Notes under the pieces: model-generated
The model's database searches: none
Told to the model about the DNA's origin: nothing
What the model saw: the letters and a program-made list of their open reading frames with translations, nothing else
Assembly (NCBI RefSeq): GCF_018336915.1
Contig: NZ_CP064925.1
Coordinates: 180,001-212,000, forward strand
Length of the DNA stretch: 32,000 nt
From: Acaryochloris marina S15
GTDB lineage: Bacteria > Cyanobacteriota > Cyanobacteriia > Thermosynechococcales > Thermosynechococcaceae
Direction: 5' to 3'
Program-made: the position numbers and the translations under genes
In this document: in pieces, positions 3,804 through 20,165 of the stretch
Layout of the letters: each line of letters begins with the position of its first letter
Numbering within the stretch: position 1 is the first letter of the stretch

Positions 3804-4265
3804 CTACGGGAATATGTTAGTACACTCCTTAAAGGCAGCATCTACACAATCACGAAAAGTGTCAAACTCATCCCATCGCTGCTTCATCCAGTTTTTGAGT
3901 ACAAACCACCATCGCTCAATTTTGTTGAGATCAGGAGAATAGCTCGGTAGATACCAAATCTCACACCCTGCTTCAGCTACGATTTCTTCGATACTTTGTC
4001 CATGGTGAAAACTGGCATTATCAATCACGATAATATCGCCAGGGTGTAGCTGGGGCAGGAGACTCTGCTGTAACCACGCCTCAAATAACAAACGATTGCA
4101 AGACCCTTCGAAAGTCATCGGGGCAAATAACTGTCGCTCTTTGAGCGCAGCAATGAAACTGACTCGCTCTGTCCGCTTGCCTGATTTAAGGTCATAGAAT
4201 CGTTGACCAATGGGGCAATATCCATAGGGATAATCCGCTCGATTATCGATACCTGCTTCATCCAC
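3804..4265 (-). CDS. IS630-family transposase, C-terminal DDE_3 catalytic part
   Basis: VDEAGIDN...VIDNASFH...YLPSYSPDLNKIERWW is the DDE(D) signature of IS630/Tc1-mariner-like transposases. The frame is open upstream to the A8 run at 4354-4361. Confidence 0.85.
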   Translation of the reverse strand: MDEAGIDNRADYPYGYCPIGQRFYDLKSGKRTERVSFIAALKERQLFAPMTFEGSCNRLLFEAWLQQSLLPQLHPGDIIVIDNASFHHGQSIEEIVAEAGCEIWYLPSYSPDLNKIERWWFVLKNWMKQRWDEFDTFRDCVDAAFKECTNIFP

Positions 4266-4380
4266 ATAGACTATCTGGTGAGGATGTTTGGTCTGTAACC
4301 GCTCTATAAAGGCTTGGCGTTGCGTTTCATCCCGTTCTCGATAGCCATAGGTCTTTTTTTTCGACTCAATCCTAATTTCT

Positions 4381-4686
4381 TCAAGGCATCACTGATATTT
4401 TGCTGGGTGACATTATCACCCATAATTTAGCCATTTGGGCCTGAGTCTTTCCCCCATGCTCTTGAGCAAATTCACGAAAGCGCTCCCAATCTGTAATTTT
4501 GTGGCGAGCTCCTTGCTGGTAGTGGGTAATGGCCTGACAATCACCGGTCGATTCCTCTCGCGCTATCCATAAGTGCAAGGTGTTCCGACTGATGTTTAAC
4601 ATCCGGCATACGTCGACTTTCCGTTCTCCATTCTTGACCGCAGCAATCGCTTTGCAGCGAAGGTCATAACTATAAGGGGCTGGCAT
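4381..4686 (-). CDS. IS630-family transposase, N-terminal HTH part. The true start is MPAPYSYDLRCKAIAAV at 4686; the longer track ORF runs out through the IS end.
   Basis: MPAPYSYDLR...ISRNTLHLWI is typical of ISY100-type transposase N-termini. The frame is lost at TTATGGGTG (G3 run), where homologs would read LWGDNVTQQNISDALKKLGLSRKKK. Confidence 0.75.
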   Translation of the reverse strand: MPAPYSYDLRCKAIAAVKNGERKVDVCRMLNISRNTLHLWIAREESTGDCQAITHYQQGARHKITDWERFREFAQEHGGKTQAQMAKLWVIMSPSKISVMP

Positions 4687-4930
4687 ACTTCTGCAGTGAT
4701 AGCTTCTATTTATAGTACTAACACAGTTTCGTAGTGCTATAATACTTCGCACCGTCCTTAACGTTGGAATTGATGGTCGTGACATCTAGCATGATTTATC
4801 GAAAAAACCGATTCTTACCTTATTTATAGGAGTGTCACTGGGAAGACCAAAACTGAACATTAAAGCGCTCTGTTCAGATAGAAAGACATAGCACTCCTAT
4901 CTACGGATTTAGGCAATTTCAAATAAGCAC

Positions 4931-5476
4931 TTAGCTAAAATTAATTACATAATCATCGCCATAGGTTTTCAAAACTCTTTCCACATATTCGACCAAAGAT
5001 GACCACCCCCAGTAGGCACTCATTTCAATCCACTGATATTTCATGAATTGCCACAGACGCTCAATCAAATTTAGATGGGGAGAATAGCTTGGTAACTCAA
5101 ACAAGGTAATTCCCCGTTCGGCCCACTCTGCCTTCATCTCATAGATTGCTTGGCTCGTATGGATAGGGGCTTGATCCATCACAATGACGGTGGGCAACTC
5201 CACGTCAGTAAAGAAGGTATCAATGCAATGACTGACAACCTCACTGGTGATGGTCTGTTCTGATGTATAAGCATGTAGCCCTTGTCGTCGACTCAAAAAC
5301 CCCAGAACATTCAAGCGTTTACTTGAACGAGTTGGTATTTCCAGATAAGTCCCTATGGGTTGCCATCCGTAGGGAATACAGGGGACTAACGAAAAACCAC
5401 TCTCATCCATAAAGAATAGGTGGATGTCTCCCTTCTCTTCTTGTTTCTTGAGATGTTCTAACTGCTGTTTTTTTCG
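4931..5476 (-). CDS. IS630-family transposase OrfB (DDE_3), probably expressed as an OrfAB fusion by -1 frameshifting
   Basis: FMDESGFS...VMDQAPIH...ELPSYSPHLNLIERLW is the DDE signature. The OrfB frame is open upstream to the A7 run, reading RKKQQLEHLKKQEEKGDIHLFFMDESGF. Confidence 0.8.
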   Translation of the reverse strand, partial: RKKQQLEHLKKQEEKGDIHLFFMDESGFSLVPCIPYGWQPIGTYLEIPTRSSKRLNVLGFLSRRQGLHAYTSEQTITSEVVSHCIDTFFTDVELPTVIVMDQAPIHTSQAIYEMKAEWAERGITLFELPSYSPHLNLIERLWQFMKYQWIEMSAYWGWSSLVEYVERVLKTYGDDYVINFS

Positions 5477-5928
5477 AGGTAGTCGGCATATAAAGGCTGG
5501 CCTGATGTCCCTTGGCGAAAGCGATGCCAGCTCATATCCATCTGCTTCAAGACGCGTTTAACGGTGGCCTTTGACACGCGCACTGACCACTGCTGTTCAA
5601 TCTGAGCTAGCACCCGATTGAGTTGGATGGGAGATGCCTGAGTCCACTCATAAATCTGCTGTTGTTGGTCGGGATTAAACATCGGTTTTCGACCTCGGCC
5701 TGGGCGATTATAGAGTCCTGCAAAACCACGGTTATTCCAAGCCTTAAGCCAGTTGTACACGGTTTTAGGACTCACACTAAAAAGGGAGGCTAAGGTGTAG
5801 GGACTCCCACCCTGGGCAGACAAAATGAGGCAATGGGCGCGTTGTCTGACCTGATGATGGCGACTACAGCGATAAATCCGATGCAATAAGCGTAAGCTTT
5901 CGGTGGAGATAGGACGGACAATTGACAT
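5458..5928 (-). CDS. IS630-family transposase OrfA (HTH / winged-helix DNA-binding part)
   Basis: ATG at 5928. SPKTVYNWLKAWNNRGFAGL and RPGRGRKP are helix-turn-helix motifs typical of IS630 N-terminal domains. The ORF ends just after the slippery A_AAA_AAC sequence (T-run 5468-5474 on the + strand). Confidence 0.8.
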   Translation of the reverse strand: MSIVRPISTESLRLLHRIYRCSRHHQVRQRAHCLILSAQGGSPYTLASLFSVSPKTVYNWLKAWNNRGFAGLYNRPGRGRKPMFNPDQQQQIYEWTQASPIQLNRVLAQIEQQWSVRVSKATVKRVLKQMDMSWHRFRQGTSGQPLYADYLEKNSS

Positions 5929-6066
5929 CAAATCAATGGATGTAAAAAAGAGGACTCAGGTAGTTTACAACCTGGAAATTCTATGTAATTAATTTTGTCC
6001 ATCTGCTTAATTAGTAGACAAAGCAATTTAAAACCTCCAGTTTTAAAGCTTTAATGCACAAACCAA

Positions 6067-8574
6067 TCAAGAAAGTGATGCTAGATAGTTCCGAAGGCTT
6101 TGAGTATGGGGATGTTTACTCCCAAGTTTTTCCTCAAAAATGACTAGAGCTTTTCGATAAAGACCTTCTGCATCCTCATTTCTGCCTTGTTTTTGATAGA
6201 GTGCCCCTAAACACCACATAGATATAGCGACATCGGGGTGTTTGTTGCCCAAGAGCTTCTGTCTCATCTGTAGGGCTTGGACATAGAGGGGGTAGGCTTC
6301 TGAGTACCGTCCTTGGTTGTCGTAGAGTAAGGCCAGGTTATTGAGGCTAAGAGCGACATAGGGGTGTTCGTTGCCCAAGAGCTTCTGTGTCATCTCTAGG
6401 GCTTGGACAAAGAGGGGTTCGGCTTCTGAGTACCGTCCTTGGTTTTTGTAGAGTGCTGCCAGACTAAGGAGGCTAAGAGCGACATAGGGGTGTTCGTTGC
6501 CCAAGAGCTTCTGTGTCATCTCTAGGGCTTGGACAAAGAGGGGTTCGGCTTCTGAGTACCGTCCTTGGTTTTTGTAGAGTGCTGCCAGACTAAGGAGGCT
6601 AGTGGCGACAGAGGGGTGTTCGTTGCCCAAGAGCTTCTGGTACATCTCTAGGGCTTGGACAAAGAGGGGTTCGGCTTCTGAGTACCGTCCTTGGCTGTCG
6701 TAGAGTAAGGCCAGGTTATTGAGGCTAAAAGCGACATCGGGGTGTTCGTTGCCCAAGAGCTTCTGTGTCATCTCTAGGGCTTGGACAAAGAGGGGTTCGG
6801 CTTCTGAGTACCGTCCTTGGCTGTCGTAGAGTAAGGCCAGGTTATTGAGGCTAGTGGCGACAGAGGGGTGTTCGTTGCCCAAGAGCTTCTGGTACATCTC
6901 TAGGGCTTGGACAAAGAGGGGTTCTGCCTTCTCACACCGTCCTTGGTTGTCGTAGAGTAAGGCCAGGTTATTGAGGCTAGTCGCGACATCGGGGTGTTCG
7001 TTGCCCAAGAGCTTCTGTCTCATCTCTAGGGCTTGTGTATAGAGGGGTTCGGCTTCTGAGTACCGTCCTTGGTGGTTGTAGACTAAGGCCAGGTTATTGA
7101 GGCTACTCGCGACATCGGGGTGTTCATTGCCCAAGAGCTTCTGTCTCATCTGTAGGGCTTGTGTATAGAGGGGTTCTGCCTCCTCATACCGTCCTTGGTT
7201 GTAGTAGAGTCCTGCCAGGTTATTGAGGCTAGTGGCGACAGAGGGGTGTTCGTTACCGAATCTCTGTTGAGTCTGTTCCAGGCATTTTTGATACCAAGGC
7301 AAAGCCAATCCATAGTTCCCTTGCCCGTCATAAAATCGACCAATACCGACATAGGGCCAAATCAATTGATCATCACTGAGGTGGTCAATCCACTGTCTGG
7401 TTAGTTCCTCCAGATGGGGAATGCTGGCACTCATCCCTGCAATCACATCAATCGTTGGACTGTAATTAATACCCTGAGCAACACCAACCATTGCTGTGCA
7501 ATAAGCTGCTTGAAGGGATTCCCCTTTGTCAGTGCGCTCATTCAACTTAATCCGAAAGAACTCCTGCACAATTTGATGGAGTTGGTAGGTACTCTGTGCT
7601 ACTCGTTTGAGTAAGTTTCTAGCAATTAAACCTTCATCCCTGATGTCTTCCAGATCATCCTGATCCTGATCTGATAGACATCCTTCAACCAAATGCCAAG
7701 GAATAGGAGCAATTGCAAACATCCCTAATAGACAAGCGAGTTCTTGCTCTGCCTTACTTAGCTCTACCCAGCTTAACTCTAGAGCAGCAGCTACTCCTAA
7801 CTGAGCCGTCATTCCTGATTCTCTTGCTGTTAGTGCTTTAGCCTCAAGTCGCTTGGATTCAAGTCGCTCAATTAGTTTTTTAATAGACCAATCTGGCTTT
7901 TTAGCTAATGACCGTCCTAGCAGCTCTAGTCCAAGGGGCAGGTTACCGACCCAACCACACAAAGTTTTGGCATCTTCTAATTGAGATTGAACCCGTTGTT
8001 GTCCGATCAGCTTTTCTAGTAGTGTTAGTGCGCTCTCATTATCGAGTTCTTCCAGGCAAAGAGAGCGAACAGATCCACCAAAATCAAGTCGAGTGGTGAT
8101 CAGGACTTTGAACCGTGGGTTCGATAGAGGAAGACAGGAGGCAACAAGCTCATACTCAACCACATCGTCAACAACGATTAGGACCTCCCCTTGGGGCCAT
8201 CGTTGCCAAATGAAACTGACCTGGGCCTCTACTTCCAGATCATCTGGGGGTTTCATTCCCAGATGACTTTTAGAAAAATCAATAATCTGAGTGGTGATTT
8301 CTTGATCTCGCGACCGCAACCAACACACTCCACCCGAATAGAGATTTTGGATTAAGGACCGTTGAGCATATTTCCAAGCTAGTTCAGTTTTACCAATCCC
8401 TCCCATCCCTTCAAGTGCAGTGATAGCGATTCGCTGGTTACTTTGCAGTTGCTCATGCAGTTGCTTGATCTGGGAGTCTCGACCGACGAAGGTGACTGCC
8501 CCACTCGCTGGTAGGTTATTCGGTATATCGGTAAGGGGATGTAACTTTGTCCGGTCCCAGTCGGACGACTCCAC
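6067..8574 (-). CDS. STAND NTPase with an NB-ARC domain followed by about 10 TPR (TPR_10/12-type) repeats
   Basis: Walker A GMGGIGKTELA, Walker B LIVVDDV, KVLITTR, and GNLPLGLELLG (GLPL-like), all NB-ARC motifs. The 42-aa repeat LGNEHPxVAxSLNNLALLYxxQGRYSEAEPLFVQALEMxQKL occurs about 10 times. The annotated start is a GTG immediately after an in-frame TGA. Confidence 0.9.
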   Translation of the reverse strand: MESSDWDRTKLHPLTDIPNNLPASGAVTFVGRDSQIKQLHEQLQSNQRIAITALEGMGGIGKTELAWKYAQRSLIQNLYSGGVCWLRSRDQEITTQIIDFSKSHLGMKPPDDLEVEAQVSFIWQRWPQGEVLIVVDDVVEYELVASCLPLSNPRFKVLITTRLDFGGSVRSLCLEELDNESALTLLEKLIGQQRVQSQLEDAKTLCGWVGNLPLGLELLGRSLAKKPDWSIKKLIERLESKRLEAKALTARESGMTAQLGVAAALELSWVELSKAEQELACLLGMFAIAPIPWHLVEGCLSDQDQDDLEDIRDEGLIARNLLKRVAQSTYQLHQIVQEFFRIKLNERTDKGESLQAAYCTAMVGVAQGINYSPTIDVIAGMSASIPHLEELTRQWIDHLSDDQLIWPYVGIGRFYDGQGNYGLALPWYQKCLEQTQQRFGNEHPSVATSLNNLAGLYYNQGRYEEAEPLYTQALQMRQKLLGNEHPDVASSLNNLALVYNHQGRYSEAEPLYTQALEMRQKLLGNEHPDVATSLNNLALLYDNQGRCEKAEPLFVQALEMYQKLLGNEHPSVATSLNNLALLYDSQGRYSEAEPLFVQALEMTQKLLGNEHPDVAFSLNNLALLYDSQGRYSEAEPLFVQALEMYQKLLGNEHPSVATSLLSLAALYKNQGRYSEAEPLFVQALEMTQKLLGNEHPYVALSLLSLAALYKNQGRYSEAEPLFVQALEMTQKLLGNEHPYVALSLNNLALLYDNQGRYSEAYPLYVQALQMRQKLLGNKHPDVAISMWCLGALYQKQGRNEDAEGLYRKALVIFEEKLGSKHPHTQSLRNYLASLS
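6100..7300 (-). repeat. 126-bp tandem repeats encoding the TPR units, with near-perfect copies at the DNA level
   Basis: For example, 6361-6474 is repeated exactly at 6487-6600 (offset 126). Related units continue across about 6230-7260. Confidence 0.9.
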
Positions 8575-9000
8575 TCATGTTTTATTTACGGTGATAGAGT
8601 CAGCGGTATAGTTTTCTCCACCATAGTTGTTGATCTGCTTGTTTTGGTTTCCGTAATTTACCTGGATTGGAGCATGGCTATCTTGAATCACACATTGATT
8701 GATTTCTTGAGCAAGTGTCTGAAGTTCCTGAGCGAATTCCGGGGCTTCCCTCATCGCAATCTTCAGATAATCACCAATGGTTTCGATGGATTCGCTGTCT
8801 CCTTCGCCAGCCTTTTCAATTGCAGTTTCAACAGTTCTATTGCCTTTGAACTTGTCCACAATTTTTTTTCGCAACTGATCAATCAACCCAAAGGCTTGTT
8901 CAGCAAATTTCTTTCCAGTCTCAGAACCGACACCTTCAACAAACTTTTGGAAGGCAAGAGCAGAAATTACTGCGGCTGACAAGGTAATGGGTTCAGTCAT
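8575..9000 (-). CDS. 141-aa helical protein with a Q/N/G/Y-rich tail. It lies in the same frame as, and is contiguous with, the NB-ARC/TPR ORF, so it is probably the detached N-terminal module.
   Basis: It ends ...ATC ACC GTA AAT AAA ACA TGA | GTG GAG TCG..., so only one stop codon separates the two ORFs. The sequence is helix-rich (LSAAVISALAFQKFVEG, IDQLRKKIVDKF, EFAQELQTLAQEINQ), followed by VNYGNQNKQINNYGGENY. Confidence 0.7.
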   Translation of the reverse strand: MTEPITLSAAVISALAFQKFVEGVGSETGKKFAEQAFGLIDQLRKKIVDKFKGNRTVETAIEKAGEGDSESIETIGDYLKIAMREAPEFAQELQTLAQEINQCVIQDSHAPIQVNYGNQNKQINNYGGENYTADSITVNKT

Positions 9001-9788: not shown

Positions 9789-9873
9789 TCCATGCCCACT
9801 CAAAAAAAGTTTTTGGTCTTTCTGATTGCAAGCCTATAGATAGGTGAGGACGACAAACATAGGAGATTCAGGA

Positions 9874-10872
9874 ATGGATCGAGAACTAAAGATATGCACT
9901 GATCTAGGCTCAAGCATGGGCAAGGGTTGTTATGACCTCGACGGGTCTATCAGGTGGATTGCTCAAGATAATGCAGTTGAAGAGGAGGAGGTTAGAGACC
10001 TGGACAGTGAGAGCTGTGTAATCGAGTACAAGGGTAGAGCATGGACGGTCGGCTCTAGCGCTATTTACGGACTACATGAAACCTCGTTGCATCAGAACAA
10101 AGCAGAGCAAGCCAGTCTAAGAACTCTGGGAATGCTTGGCAAGGTCATTGAACGAGAGCAGTTTTTAGAGGGCTATGTTGATCTAACGGTGCTTTTACCT
10201 GAAGGTGAGCGGCGATACTTTAAAACCTTGGAGTCGAACCTGGCGAAAGGTATTTACGGATCAACATTCAACGGTCTTAAGCCAAACGTGAAAGTGCGAC
10301 GGGTCCGGGTACTGCCTGAAGGATCGGGTATTGCTTCACAGATACAAGATCAGGGGGCAATGGCGATCATGTTTGGTCACAAGGATGTCTCGTTGCTCCA
10401 AGTTCTGAACGGCGTAATCCAGGCTCAGAAGAGTCTCACGCTTTCCAACCTTGGGATGATTAAGCTCATCAGTGAATGCGGCATTCACATTTCAGATGAA
10501 CTGATCCTTTCTACACTGATCTGTAGAGAAGTCAGAAACAAGAATGGGTTTAAACATGCTTTCTCGGATAAGGAAGCATTGAAGAACGCCAGACAGATCC
10601 TCAAGGATACAAAGGCTAAAGTTTGGCCTCTACTCTCCAGAAAGTTTGACGGGTTTCCAGCCTTGGGGACTGCAACCAAGATTTATGTGACTGGGGGCAG
10701 TCATCCAGTCTGGGGGCCAGAGCTAAAAAACAAGTTTGGAACTAAGCTGCGTTTCTTCAAGGATGAACTTGAAGAGATGTCAGGGGCCTTGCCAGAACTG
10801 AATGCGCCAGAGTACACGGGGTACAAGAATCGGTTTACTGACAGTTATCTATTGATTAAGGGGGTTGGGTGA
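9874..10872 (+). CDS. Actin-like ATPase (ParM/Alp-like), candidate type II plasmid-partition motor
   Basis: ICTDLGSSMGKG resembles the ParM phosphate-1 motif (FIDDGSTNIKL). VRVLPEGSGIA resembles VKVMPESIPAG. IYVTGGSHPVWGPELK resembles the adenosine motif VMVIGGGAELI. Phosphate-2 is degenerate (AIMFGHKDVSLLQV). GGAG sits 8 nt upstream of the ATG at 9874; the track's GTG at 9844 is less likely. Confidence 0.6.
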   Translation: MDRELKICTDLGSSMGKGCYDLDGSIRWIAQDNAVEEEEVRDLDSESCVIEYKGRAWTVGSSAIYGLHETSLHQNKAEQASLRTLGMLGKVIEREQFLEGYVDLTVLLPEGERRYFKTLESNLAKGIYGSTFNGLKPNVKVRRVRVLPEGSGIASQIQDQGAMAIMFGHKDVSLLQVLNGVIQAQKSLTLSNLGMIKLISECGIHISDELILSTLICREVRNKNGFKHAFSDKEALKNARQILKDTKAKVWPLLSRKFDGFPALGTATKIYVTGGSHPVWGPELKNKFGTKLRFFKDELEEMSGALPELNAPEYTGYKNRFTDSYLLIKGVG

Positions 10873-18847: not shown

Positions 18848-19717
18848 CTAGGCAACAGCTAACTCTTCAGACTCAGTAGAGGCAGCGCTTTCAATGCCCT
18901 CAATAATCGCCTTAACGGTTTTTGCGATCACACTCATTGACGCTTTGAATTGCTCAAGTGCCTGATCGCTTTCCCGGTTCCAACTAGTGATGTATGCAAA
19001 ACTCCGTTTCTGATCTTCGGCAACCCCAAAATATTGAGTCACGCAGTAGGCCACAGATTCAGCCTCTAATTCCTTTTGGGAAGTCAGAGAATGCCCCTTG
19101 TACTCTTCAGCGTTGTGCATCAGGGCATGGCCTAGCTCATGGGCGAGAATGCTAGCTCTTAACTCCACGCTCAGCAGTGGGTCAACCCGAATCTCAATTC
19201 CATCAGGCTTGTAGATGCATACCCCATACGAACCAGGATAGGCTTGCTCTAGCACCTTGAACCCTTGAGCTTCACCGAATGCTTTGAGATTTCGGTATAG
19301 CTCGGCCTCAGTGGTTTGAGCCTTGATATCTGTTTCCTCTAATTCGTCGCCATCGGTCTGGCTGATGTCAAAGACGCTTGCAGTAGTGAAACCAAAGATT
19401 TTCCAAGCCTTCTCCTTTGTTTTTTCATCCTCGACTTTCTTCTTGCAGGGAGCGAGGATAACGATCCCTTTCTCCCCTTTGCGAACCTGTCGCCCGTGCT
19501 TCTGCCAAGCCTTGTAGCCTGCCACATGGCTAGCATCTGGGCATTGGCCGTAAATTAGCATCGAGTTTTTTGCGGAATAGTTGTAGAACTTGGAATGGAA
19601 ATCTAGATATTGTCGCCAATCGGCTTCAGTTGAAATATTCAGAATGCCTTGCTCTAATTTTTCGAGTGCTGCTTGCTGTTTGGCTTGGGCTTTCTCACGT
19701 TTTGATTGAGTGGTCAT
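18848..19717 (-). CDS. ardC: ArdC-like antirestriction protein (N-terminal ssDNA-binding ArdC-N domain plus C-terminal HExxH metallopeptidase domain)
   Basis: YNYSAKNSMLIYGQ...GYKAWQKHGRQVRKGEKGIVILAP matches the ArdC-N/DUF1738 pattern. ILAHELGHALMH is an HExxH zinc site. AAGGGA lies 9 nt before the ATG at 19717. The track's longer N-terminus overlaps the upstream gene. Confidence 0.7.
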   Translation of the reverse strand: MTTQSKREKAQAKQQAALEKLEQGILNISTEADWRQYLDFHSKFYNYSAKNSMLIYGQCPDASHVAGYKAWQKHGRQVRKGEKGIVILAPCKKKVEDEKTKEKAWKIFGFTTASVFDISQTDGDELEETDIKAQTTEAELYRNLKAFGEAQGFKVLEQAYPGSYGVCIYKPDGIEIRVDPLLSVELRASILAHELGHALMHNAEEYKGHSLTSQKELEAESVAYCVTQYFGVAEDQKRSFAYITSWNRESDQALEQFKASMSVIAKTVKAIIEGIESAASTESEELAVA

Positions 19718-19787
19718 AATATTCATTCCCTTGTGTAGCGAGTGGGTGTAAGTGAAGTGGAAGGGGCAAAGATGCCCCAAGAGATTT

Positions 19788-20165
19788 CTAAATTTCGTCT
19801 TCGTAATCGTTTTCAGCTCTTGCGGTCTGATCGGCTGGCACGGTGTACCAGTCACTGAGAACACCTTTAAGTTCGGGGTGATTGAGAACCCAATTTTCGA
19901 TCCGGGTTTGGGTGGTACGCTCTTCAGCGGAAGGCTTTCGGGTTACCATCAGCACCCAATGCTCATCGAAATCGATCTCAGCATCGAAGGGGCCACAGTC
20001 CTTTGTCTGAATACAAGCCAGAGTATAGGGAGGGCAGAAAGGATTCTCAGTGTGCTCGTTAACGAAGGCTATCCCATCGGCTTCAGTCTGAACCAGCCAC
20101 ATATCAGGCTGGGTTTGTGGCTGAGTGGTTAAATGAAGAGCTTGTGTTTCGAGTAGAGTAGACAT
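19788..20165 (-). CDS. Hypothetical acidic protein (125 aa), first gene of the minus-strand operon
   Basis: ORF with coding-like composition and an acidic C-terminus (ENDYEDEI). No family recognised. Confidence 0.5.
   Translation of the reverse strand: MSTLLETQALHLTTQPQTQPDMWLVQTEADGIAFVNEHTENPFCPPYTLACIQTKDCGPFDAEIDFDEHWVLMVTRKPSAEERTTQTRIENWVLNHPELKGVLSDWYTVPADQTARAENDYEDEI

Follow-up and report, generated by a model that had tools for sequence, protein, structure and literature searches.

An in-frame stop codon and a covarying RNA structure between a Bell-like effector and an NB-ARC/TPR receptor: a candidate for programmed readthrough in cyanobacterial immune loci

The closest described systems are the Bell/BASS-NLR pairs of filamentous bacteria (Dyrka et al. 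2020, bioRxiv 10.1101/2020.01.06.895854) and Bab/Agp of E. coli (bioRxiv 10.1101/2024.11.07.622273), in which a helical protein of about 100 residues begins with a hydrophobic N-terminus of the MEPIS type and ends in a β-prone motif of about 25-35 residues rich in Q, N and G. We analysed a 32,000-nucleotide stretch of Acaryochloris marina S15 (contig NZ_CP064925.1, positions 180,001 to 212,000), hereafter the window, which carries a locus sharing these features: a small protein of the same kind is collinear with and abuts an NB-ARC/TPR gene, in a phylum, the cyanobacteria, where such pairs occur. Unlike these pairs, the NLR has no terminal motif matching the tail of the small protein, and the two open reading frames (ORFs) are in frame across a conserved stop codon followed by an RNA structure. 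We propose, with a probability of roughly 0.6, that this junction directs programmed stop-codon readthrough, which would yield a free effector together with a low-abundance effector-NLR fusion able to seed it. Neither the survey of Dyrka et al. nor the Bab/Agp preprint mentions readthrough, stop codons or frameshifting, and we found no description of readthrough or recoding in the papers searched on bacterial NLR/Bell systems or on ribosome profiling of Anabaena. Bell/BASS-NLR signalling and pseudoknot readthrough are thus each known; we found no report of both combined, and a structure-associated cassette of this kind in cellular bacterial genes would be new.

The stop codon and the leader behind it

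On the minus strand of the window, an ORF of 141 residues starts with ATG at 9000, runs to 8578 and is closed by a TGA (8577-8575). A GTG at 8574 abuts this stop and opens an ORF of 835 residues that ends at 6067; the two ORFs share one frame and no nucleotide separates them (...AAT AAA ACA TGA GTG GAG TCG...). Decoding through the TGA would give a protein of 141+1+835 = 977 residues. The downstream ORF has the Walker A P-loop, the NB-ARC domain and the C-terminal repeats that define a STAND NTPase of the NB-ARC/TPR NLR class. A first-pass annotation made from the sequence alone had described contiguous ORFs in one frame and a 977-residue product across the TGA; the ORF layout on the minus strand bears this out. 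NB-ARC and about ten TPRs do lie behind a helical N-terminal module and its tail, according to Pfam and AlphaFold2, and the Q/N/G/Y-rich stretch is present as it was quoted. No minus-strand promoter or terminator signal was detected between the two ORFs, nor any signal exceeding shuffle expectation.

Genomes, metagenomes, plasmids and assemblies were searched for this junction, which yielded 23 loci in addition to that of the window. They come from A. marina MBIC11017 (plasmids pREB4, pREB5 and pREB8), Acaryochloris 'Moss Beach' (pMB04, with two junctions), Nostoc UHCC 0870, Nostoc C057, Nostoc/Anabaena PCC 7120 (pCC7120gamma), Nostocales HT-58-2, Calothrix brevissima NIES-22, Leptolyngbyaceae and Thainema metagenome-assembled genomes, and several metagenome contigs. 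In all 24 loci, exactly one stop separates the two parts, and the downstream ORF keeps the frame of the upstream one. TGA serves as this stop in 21 loci and TAG in three (L010, L016 and L044), with uninterrupted ORFs of 600-1100 residues behind it. The N modules on its other side are merely 35-60% identical. As the codon directly behind the stop, CTA occurs in 15 loci, CTG in 6, ATA in one (L043) and GTG in two, the window and a 97% identical relative (L041). The base at position +4 is therefore C in 21 of 24 loci, G in the window and L041, and A in L043. UGA followed by C is a documented weak termination context in bacteria (PMC5289835).

As a control, we considered 10 sister loci in which the downstream gene has its own Shine-Dalgarno sequence and ATG. 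The two genes are in frame in 4 of these 10, and the stops are mostly TAA or TAG. Since the single in-frame stop recurs in 23 loci besides the window, and the sister loci are in mixed frames, this comparison of sequences indicates that the same-frame arrangement of the junction loci is not due to chance. The first-pass annotation had suggested looking among orthologues for a sense codon at the position of the TGA. A stop occupies this position in 24 of 24 loci and no sense-codon version of the junction was found; a search with the window junction translated as a fusion retrieved only classical NLRs with N-termini of their own. One apparent case was rejected. The protein P0127 (L034 488-1648, ENA contig k141_901044) has an apparent Trp at the stop, but the contig itself has TGA, and the gene caller evidently used a code in which TGA is Trp, since this yielded a longer ORF. 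Entries of this type can mimic natural fusions.

The sequence that follows the stop encodes a conserved peptide, L-E/Q-S-S/P-D/E-x-x-R-T/V/A-K-L-N-P-P, which begins at the very first codon. Codon positions were compared in nine leaders of equal length. Over codons 15-55, the differences at positions 1, 2 and 3 number 392, 326 and 941, with 16 and 34 stops in the two remaining frames. The third-position excess and the stop-ridden alternative frames show, at the level of sequence evolution, that selection acts on the leader as protein-coding sequence, in the frame used by the upstream ORF. Over codons 1-14 the excess is gone (110, 28 and 105 differences), as expected if an RNA structure adds constraint to this region. 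The coding leader often lacks a start codon: of the 17 loci that have a P-loop, 8 reach a canonical in-frame start only at the P-loop or beyond it. Existing annotations reflect this. PGAP placed the NLR start of pMB04 at a CTG (L021 3151), the annotated NLR start of PCC 7120 (L035 3567) lies 21 codons past the stop at a codon read as Ile in the in-frame translation, and the GenBank coding sequence of HT-58-2 (L036 2464) begins after the P-loop. In the loci inspected, annotation pipelines thus mis-call the NLRs, with CTG starts or coding sequences that begin after the P-loop, and screens for motif pairs such as the BASS survey cannot detect these loci.

A covarying RNA structure at a fixed distance from the stop

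The spacer between the stop and the RNA structure always measures 8 nt, with the family consensus CTRSAGYC (alignments A3 and A5). It leads into a 5-bp stem, S1, of the form GYCYG-N8-YRGRY. The loop of this stem contains GGGA, which is able to pair with a UCCC located nine nt further (S2), and the stretch in between is A-rich (AAAGUUAAA). We propose that the spacer-adjacent stem and the loop helix combine into a compact H-type pseudoknot. Among the junction loci gathered by that stage of the analysis, each one that fits the exact pattern contains the DNA motif once, and the classical loci do not contain it. The junction has no Rfam match at E <= 10, and two junction patterns gave no match in viral contigs.

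Pairing statistics were computed on 22 aligned junctions, after an earlier set of 15 sequences. S1 is paired in 100% of the cells of the alignment; its pair 13-28 is UA in 13 sequences and CG in 9, and its pair 15-26 is CG in 17, UG in 4 and UA in one. S2 is paired in 96.6% of the cells, pair 20-42 being GC in 17 sequences, GU in 3 and AU in 2, and pair 23-39 being AU in 19, CG in one and GU in one. Compensatory double changes are observed in four pairs, UA<->CG and CG<->UA in S1, GC<->AU and AU<->CG in S2. When the 3' partner was slid by 1-3 columns as a control, pairing fell to 17-61% of the cells, and the observed covariation score was reached by none of 500 shuffles. The encoded residues vary (S/P, T/A/V, W/R/Q/G) while base pairing persists.

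The arrangement recalls viral recoding signals. In murine leukaemia virus gag-pol, a UAG is followed by an 8-nt spacer and a pseudoknot; UGA-CUA(G) contexts are known from alphaviruses and human genes, and compact pseudoknots from signals of the luteovirus type. Readthrough of a UGA also occurs in phage Qbeta A1, and to our knowledge neither Qbeta A1 nor B. subtilis sacB has a conserved 3' pseudoknot. The cyanobacterial junction shares with the viral signals (examples are tabulated in PMC7026636) the stop, the fixed 8-nt spacer, the compact H-type pseudoknot proposed here and, in most loci, the C, often CUA, in the next position, and it would likewise yield two products with a common N-terminus at a set ratio. 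It differs from them in belonging to a cellular bacterial family carried on plasmids, in facing 70S ribosomes with RF1/RF2 and in its smaller pseudoknot (5 + 4 bp). Its proposed role is also distinct, the stoichiometry of an immune receptor rather than a replicase or capsid extension. With Qbeta A1 and sacB (PMC7026636), it would have in common a natural suppression of the stop in a bacterial host leading to a C-terminal extension. These are single genes, however, whereas the junction is a portable cassette that is reused between differing modules.

The Bell-like module, proposed readthrough and its alternatives

As the first-pass annotation had noted, the N-terminal module matches no recognised family; this was the outcome of our searches of Pfam, NCBIfam and PADLOC. 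A word-indexed search returned 15 homologues, all of 134-150 residues (alignment A1), and a full profile search extended the family to 503 clusters at 50% identity, mostly stand-alone proteins of about 140 residues. A minority is fused to TIR, CHAT-like plus TIR, GUN4-like, HEAT, transmembrane or NB-ARC-TPR modules. Conservation within the family is highest at the N-terminus, MTEPITLSAAVISALAFQKF, with P4, A9, I12, L15, A16 and F17 invariant or nearly so in A1. Bell, Hell and Babybell domains share a 'MEPIS' region with several antiphage NLRs, and in the Bell/Babybell fold a hydrophobic helix 1 is cupped by four helices (Saupe and colleagues). The MTEPITLS of the N module resembles the 'MEPIS' motif. 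AlphaFold2, run with A1, predicted five helices (residues 9-22, 34-50, 55-65, 69-85 and 87-102) with a predicted local distance difference test score (pLDDT) of 70-88 over residues 30-100, and strands at 112-116, 119-126 and 129-133 with low pLDDT in the tail. A Foldseek search of this model against the PDB gave no match below E = 1. The segment from residue 106 to 141 (residues 106-141) abounds in N, Q, G, Y, I and V; this Q/N/G tail is conserved in the family and has the composition described for BASS motifs. The module as modelled fits the Bell type, with an all-α domain of about 100 residues and a β-prone Q/N/G tail. The earlier suggestion of a Bell/HeLo domain with an amyloid motif thereby gains support from the N-terminal resemblance, from the predicted structure of residues 1-141 and from the NLRs of the sister loci.

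In three sister loci (L026, L032 and L030), the NLR possesses a separate start codon and bears a motif of its own that matches the tail of the effector. In L032, for instance, a locus of the same genus as the window, ...GWQTKVEGGTAYIGEIHI is matched with ...GFQTLVEEGGIANIGNHYHL, the adjacent NLR beginning with a helical segment of its own followed by the tail-matching motif; L026, also of this genus, is similar. The tails in L026 and L032 are of a type related to that of the window. In Pseudanabaena, the tail of a caspase matches the N-terminus of the NLR. By sequence, the sister loci belong to the classical Bell/BASS-NLR paradigm. In the window, the NLR ORF starts with VESSDWDRTKLHPLTDIP... 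and contains no Q/N/G motif matching the effector tail, which agrees with the first-pass annotation. The junction loci have no second motif, and a readthrough fusion would supply the motif, along with the whole Bell-like domain, at the N-terminus of the NLR. Readthrough would thus explain why the NLR has no matching motif of its own.

We favour programmed readthrough because the stop is kept through TGA/TAG exchange, the frame is strict, the coding leader often has no start, the base at +4 is C in most loci and the structure covaries at 8 nt. In viruses, programmed readthrough is recognised by features of this kind. Under this mechanism, ribosomes would make the 141-residue Bell-like protein with its Q/N/G tail, and most of them would terminate at the TGA to release free effector, with the pseudoknot 8 nt downstream sitting at the mRNA entry channel. 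A minority would decode the stop by a near-cognate tRNA, probably Trp for UGA, and continue through the leader, NB-ARC and TPR to give the 977-residue fusion. The 835-residue part would then be translated mainly or solely as the C-terminal portion of this fusion, which would in effect be an NLR of the all-in-one kind, bearing a single copy of the effector with its amyloid motif. The parallel with HET-S/NWD2 and Bab/Agp suggests that the TPR/NB-ARC part may sense a trigger and oligomerise, and the clustered N-terminal motifs may nucleate a cross-β fold. This fold would template the abundant free 141-residue protein and free its hydrophobic helix 1, leading to membrane damage and possibly to abortive infection or cell death. 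The predicted fusion has the architecture of all-in-one antiphage NLRs with a Bell-like 'MEPIS' domain (Avast2/Avs2, bNACHT02/11/23), and the free short product would be the counterpart of HET-S or Bab. Unlike HET-S/NWD2 and Bab/Agp, whose sensor has the motif only, one gene would here encode both the all-in-one and the free-effector forms. If this is true, the junction loci represent a third architecture between all-in-one NLRs and two-gene amyloid-signalling pairs, and explain how an NLR devoid of motif communicates with its effector.

Among the alternatives, an independent start of the NLR comes closest, although we consider it unlikely. The effector would truly end at the stop, the NLR would be started from an internal or non-canonical site in the leader, the RNA structure would control either this initiation or the stability of the mRNA, and common descent would account for the shared frame. 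The modest hairpin energies are compatible with such a role, and in 12 of 20 loci a GTG, TTG or ATG lies between leader and P-loop or, where the P-loop motif is absent, ahead of the downstream domain; independent initiation is therefore possible in these loci, which also counts against readthrough. In Leptolyngbya boryana the NLR ORF is intact though out of frame, with a TTG before the NB-ARC core. An internal start does not account for the 8 loci without a canonical start before the P-loop or for the coding-type evolution of the leader right from the stop. No near-cognate start occupies a conserved position, and 24 loci preserve both the frame and the spacer of 8 nt despite strongly diverged flanks. 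Slightly less probable in our view is the production of two polypeptides by termination and reinitiation, which the first-pass annotation had proposed. The ribosome would restart at the abutting codon, and the hairpin or pseudoknot, which that annotation had not recognised, would hold or reposition it. The genes of Bell/NLR pairs are often tightly coupled or overlapping (Dyrka et al.), and the window and its relative L041 do have TGAGTG. Reinitiation needs no frame keeping, yet all 24 loci are in frame, and a reinitiated NLR would lack the motif that, in the classical sister loci, matches the effector tail. CTA, an unusable initiator, or CTG or ATA follows the stop in the 22 other loci, so that these have no usable abutting start, nor do the 8 loci mentioned above offer a canonical one ahead of the P-loop. 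Reinitiation at the GTG is possible for the window alone; as a general mechanism, it is contradicted by the sequences of the other 22 loci.

Two further explanations appear far less probable. UGA could be recoded as selenocysteine or by another dedicated insertion, the hairpin acting like a selenocysteine insertion sequence (SECIS) element; we hold this for very improbable even though 21 of 24 loci have UGA with a hairpin immediately downstream. The same downstream element follows a TAG in L010, L016 and L044, showing that UGA is not obligatory. The site is an interdomain linker and not a redox site, a tRNA scan found no tRNA gene in the window, and the Rfam search was negative. The least credible explanation is a decaying pseudogene, a fusion NLR newly disarmed by a nonsense mutation, as the first-pass annotation had also envisaged. 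It could invoke the IS630 elements that adjoin the locus and the truncation of some related NLR ORFs (L025, L034), but it is contradicted by a stop kept at the same codon in 24 loci from several cyanobacterial orders, by the replacement of TGA with TAG on three occasions, by the long downstream ORFs and by the coding-type leader. The N module is, moreover, normally a stand-alone protein of about 140 residues, which argues against a recent nonsense mutation. Ribosome hopping was considered and rejected, as the codons flanking the stop form no matching take-off/landing pairs.

Several observations weigh against programmed readthrough. The window itself carries UGA-G and not UGA-C, plus the GTG permitting possible reinitiation. 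In Leptolyngbya boryana IU 594 plasmid p2 (L028 1975-2060; the same is found in NIES-2135), the NLR is out of frame: the junction reads TAG CTG AAG TCG TCG GGGGGG CAC CGA CAA AG, with a loop of 7 nt (a G7 run) against the usual 8, and with a flipped pair in S1 (GUCGG/CCGAC). The short loop could reflect decay, a homopolymer sequencing problem or phase variation. The minimum free energy (MFE) of the hairpin is small, -3.5 to -10 kcal/mol, and the MFE z-scores of nested folds against shuffles, about +1 to -2, are not significant; we relied on covariation because this thermodynamic support is weak. The structure lies within coding sequence and the 22 sequences are related, so that shared ancestry or codon constraint could explain part of the pairing. 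The N module has neither a profile nor a fold match, and the amyloid and pore-forming steps are drawn by analogy. We know of no established precedent for structure-stimulated readthrough in cellular bacterial genes. B. subtilis sacB is the sole bacterial readthrough case listed in one review (PMC7026636).

Reuse of the junction and setting of the locus

The junction is found between different modules. Upstream of it lie the Bell-like family of the window, two other helical families beginning with MEPLTAG or MELLT, or an α/β hydrolase, and downstream NB-ARC-TPR, NACHT-HEAT (L018) or CHASE2 (L037) proteins. In pMB04 (L021 2107-3100), the α/β hydrolase WP_235112228.1 ends in the same type of Q/N/G tail, as reported for BASS motifs, and in the TGA-pseudoknot junction. 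This junction leads into an NLR that is 88% identical to that of the window, and the second junction of the locus is located 3 kb downstream. Between the window and pMB04, DNA homology begins just 18 nt before the stop, the upstream modules being unrelated; effector modules thus appear to have been swapped at the junction. In Calothrix brevissima NIES-22 plasmid4 (L037 2515-4305), the cassette joins a Bell-like small protein to a CHASE2-domain membrane protein, which shows that it is not confined to STAND NTPases.

We give about even odds to a broader proposal, that the stop, the 8-nt spacer, the pseudoknot and the leader constitute a portable recoding cassette of cyanobacterial immune loci. 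Such a cassette would set the ratio of free effector to NLR-tethered copies, allowing the sensor to seed its own executioner without a second motif segment, and would represent, for cellular bacterial genes, the first programmed readthrough element stimulated by a structure. Programmed readthrough belongs to textbook virology and has hardly been documented in cellular bacterial genes. A 3' pseudoknot that covaries and sits at the viral-type spacing of 8 nt would offer the recoding field a new natural system, which is tractable because a copy is present on pCC7120gamma of Anabaena PCC 7120. This copy corresponds to PCC7120DELTA_RS01205/RS01200, and its stop is located at about 69968-69970 of NC_003267.1 on the complement strand.

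Table 1. Coordinates, strand and supporting evidence of the features of the effector-NLR locus and of its neighbours in the window
Feature	Coordinates	Strand	Basis
Upstream ORF, Bell-like helical domain and amyloid-type tail, proposed free short product	8575..9000 (including stop)	-	ORF call
Bell-like all-α domain, residues ~1-105, N-terminus MTEPITLS then hydrophobic helix 1	8686..9000	-	AlphaFold2, alignment A1
Q/N/G/Y-rich tail, residues 106-141 (...QVNYGNQNKQINNYGGENYTADSITVNKT), candidate BASS-type amyloid signalling motif	8578..8685	-	Conservation in A1, low-confidence predicted strands
In-frame TGA, proposed leaky stop	8575..8577	-	Homologous stop in 24/24 loci
8-nt spacer GTGGAGTC, stop to RNA structure	8567..8574	-	Length invariant in alignments A3, A5
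Proposed compact H-type pseudoknot	8536..8566	-	Pairing/covariation in 22 sequences
Pseudoknot S1, GTCCG with CGGAC	8562-8566 with 8549-8553	-	
Pseudoknot S2, loop GGGA with TCCC	8555-8558 with 8536-8539	-	
Pseudoknot L3, A-rich AAAGTTACA	8540-8548	-	
Downstream 835-residue ORF, leader peptide, NB-ARC and TPR sensor	6067..8574	-	ORF call, Pfam
NB-ARC STAND NTPase domain	7834..8478	-	Pfam PF00931, E 7e-18, residues 33-247 of second ORF
P-loop GMGGIGKT, residues 56-63	8386-8409	-	
TPR sensor, ~10 TPR_12/TPR_10 repeats	6085..7353	-	Pfam TPR_12 E 3e-162, 10 stretches; NCBIfam FxSxx_TPR-like
Pair of IS630-family transposase genes immediately downstream of the NLR, each divided into HTH and DDE_3 ORFs	3804-4785, 4931-5931	-	Pfam DDE_3, HTH_Tnp_IS630/HTH_32
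ParM-like ALP_N partition gene, upstream of and divergent from the effector-NLR operon	9844-10872	+	
ArdC-like antirestriction/M78 peptidase gene, further along	18848-19864	-	

The neighbouring genes (Table 1) agree with the mobile replicon bearing insertion sequence elements that the first-pass annotation had recognised. The split of the two IS630-family transposases into HTH and DDE parts is usual for insertion sequences requiring a frameshift, or for decayed copies. The ParM/ALP-like and ArdC-like genes are, by their sequences, consistent with a conjugative plasmid backbone, and DNA-level matches to the window were obtained in Acaryochloris plasmids only, at 75-89% identity. The earlier reading of the architecture as that of a defence or conflict NLR also holds. 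Toxin-antitoxin genes adjoin two junction loci, HicA/HicB at L043 71-648 and a HigA antitoxin at L021 1548-1838; to judge from their sequences, these neighbours fit a defence-island setting.

A different type of junction was observed on plasmid pREB7 of A. marina MBIC11017 (NC_009932.1; L033 1900-1960), where a gene with CHAT-like and TIR domains ends in ...ACA AAA AAG TAG. The downstream NB-ARC-TPR is in the -1 frame, which is already open ahead of the stop and whose first canonical start lies shortly before the P-loop. The end of the gene contains a slippery heptamer of the dnaX type, A_AAA_AAG, followed by a 10-bp stem, AACTCTCCGT-N16-ACGGAGAGTT, of -16.9 kcal/mol. From its sequence, this junction is a candidate for -1 programmed frameshifting that would produce a TIR-NLR fusion. 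These TIR-NLR loci thus appear to arrive, by another route, at the same outcome as the readthrough junction; if they do, recoding would constitute a design principle general to such NLR systems. The heptamer and the stop are invariant in four Acaryochloris plasmid loci (L033, L038, L039 and L040) that are 85-92% identical.

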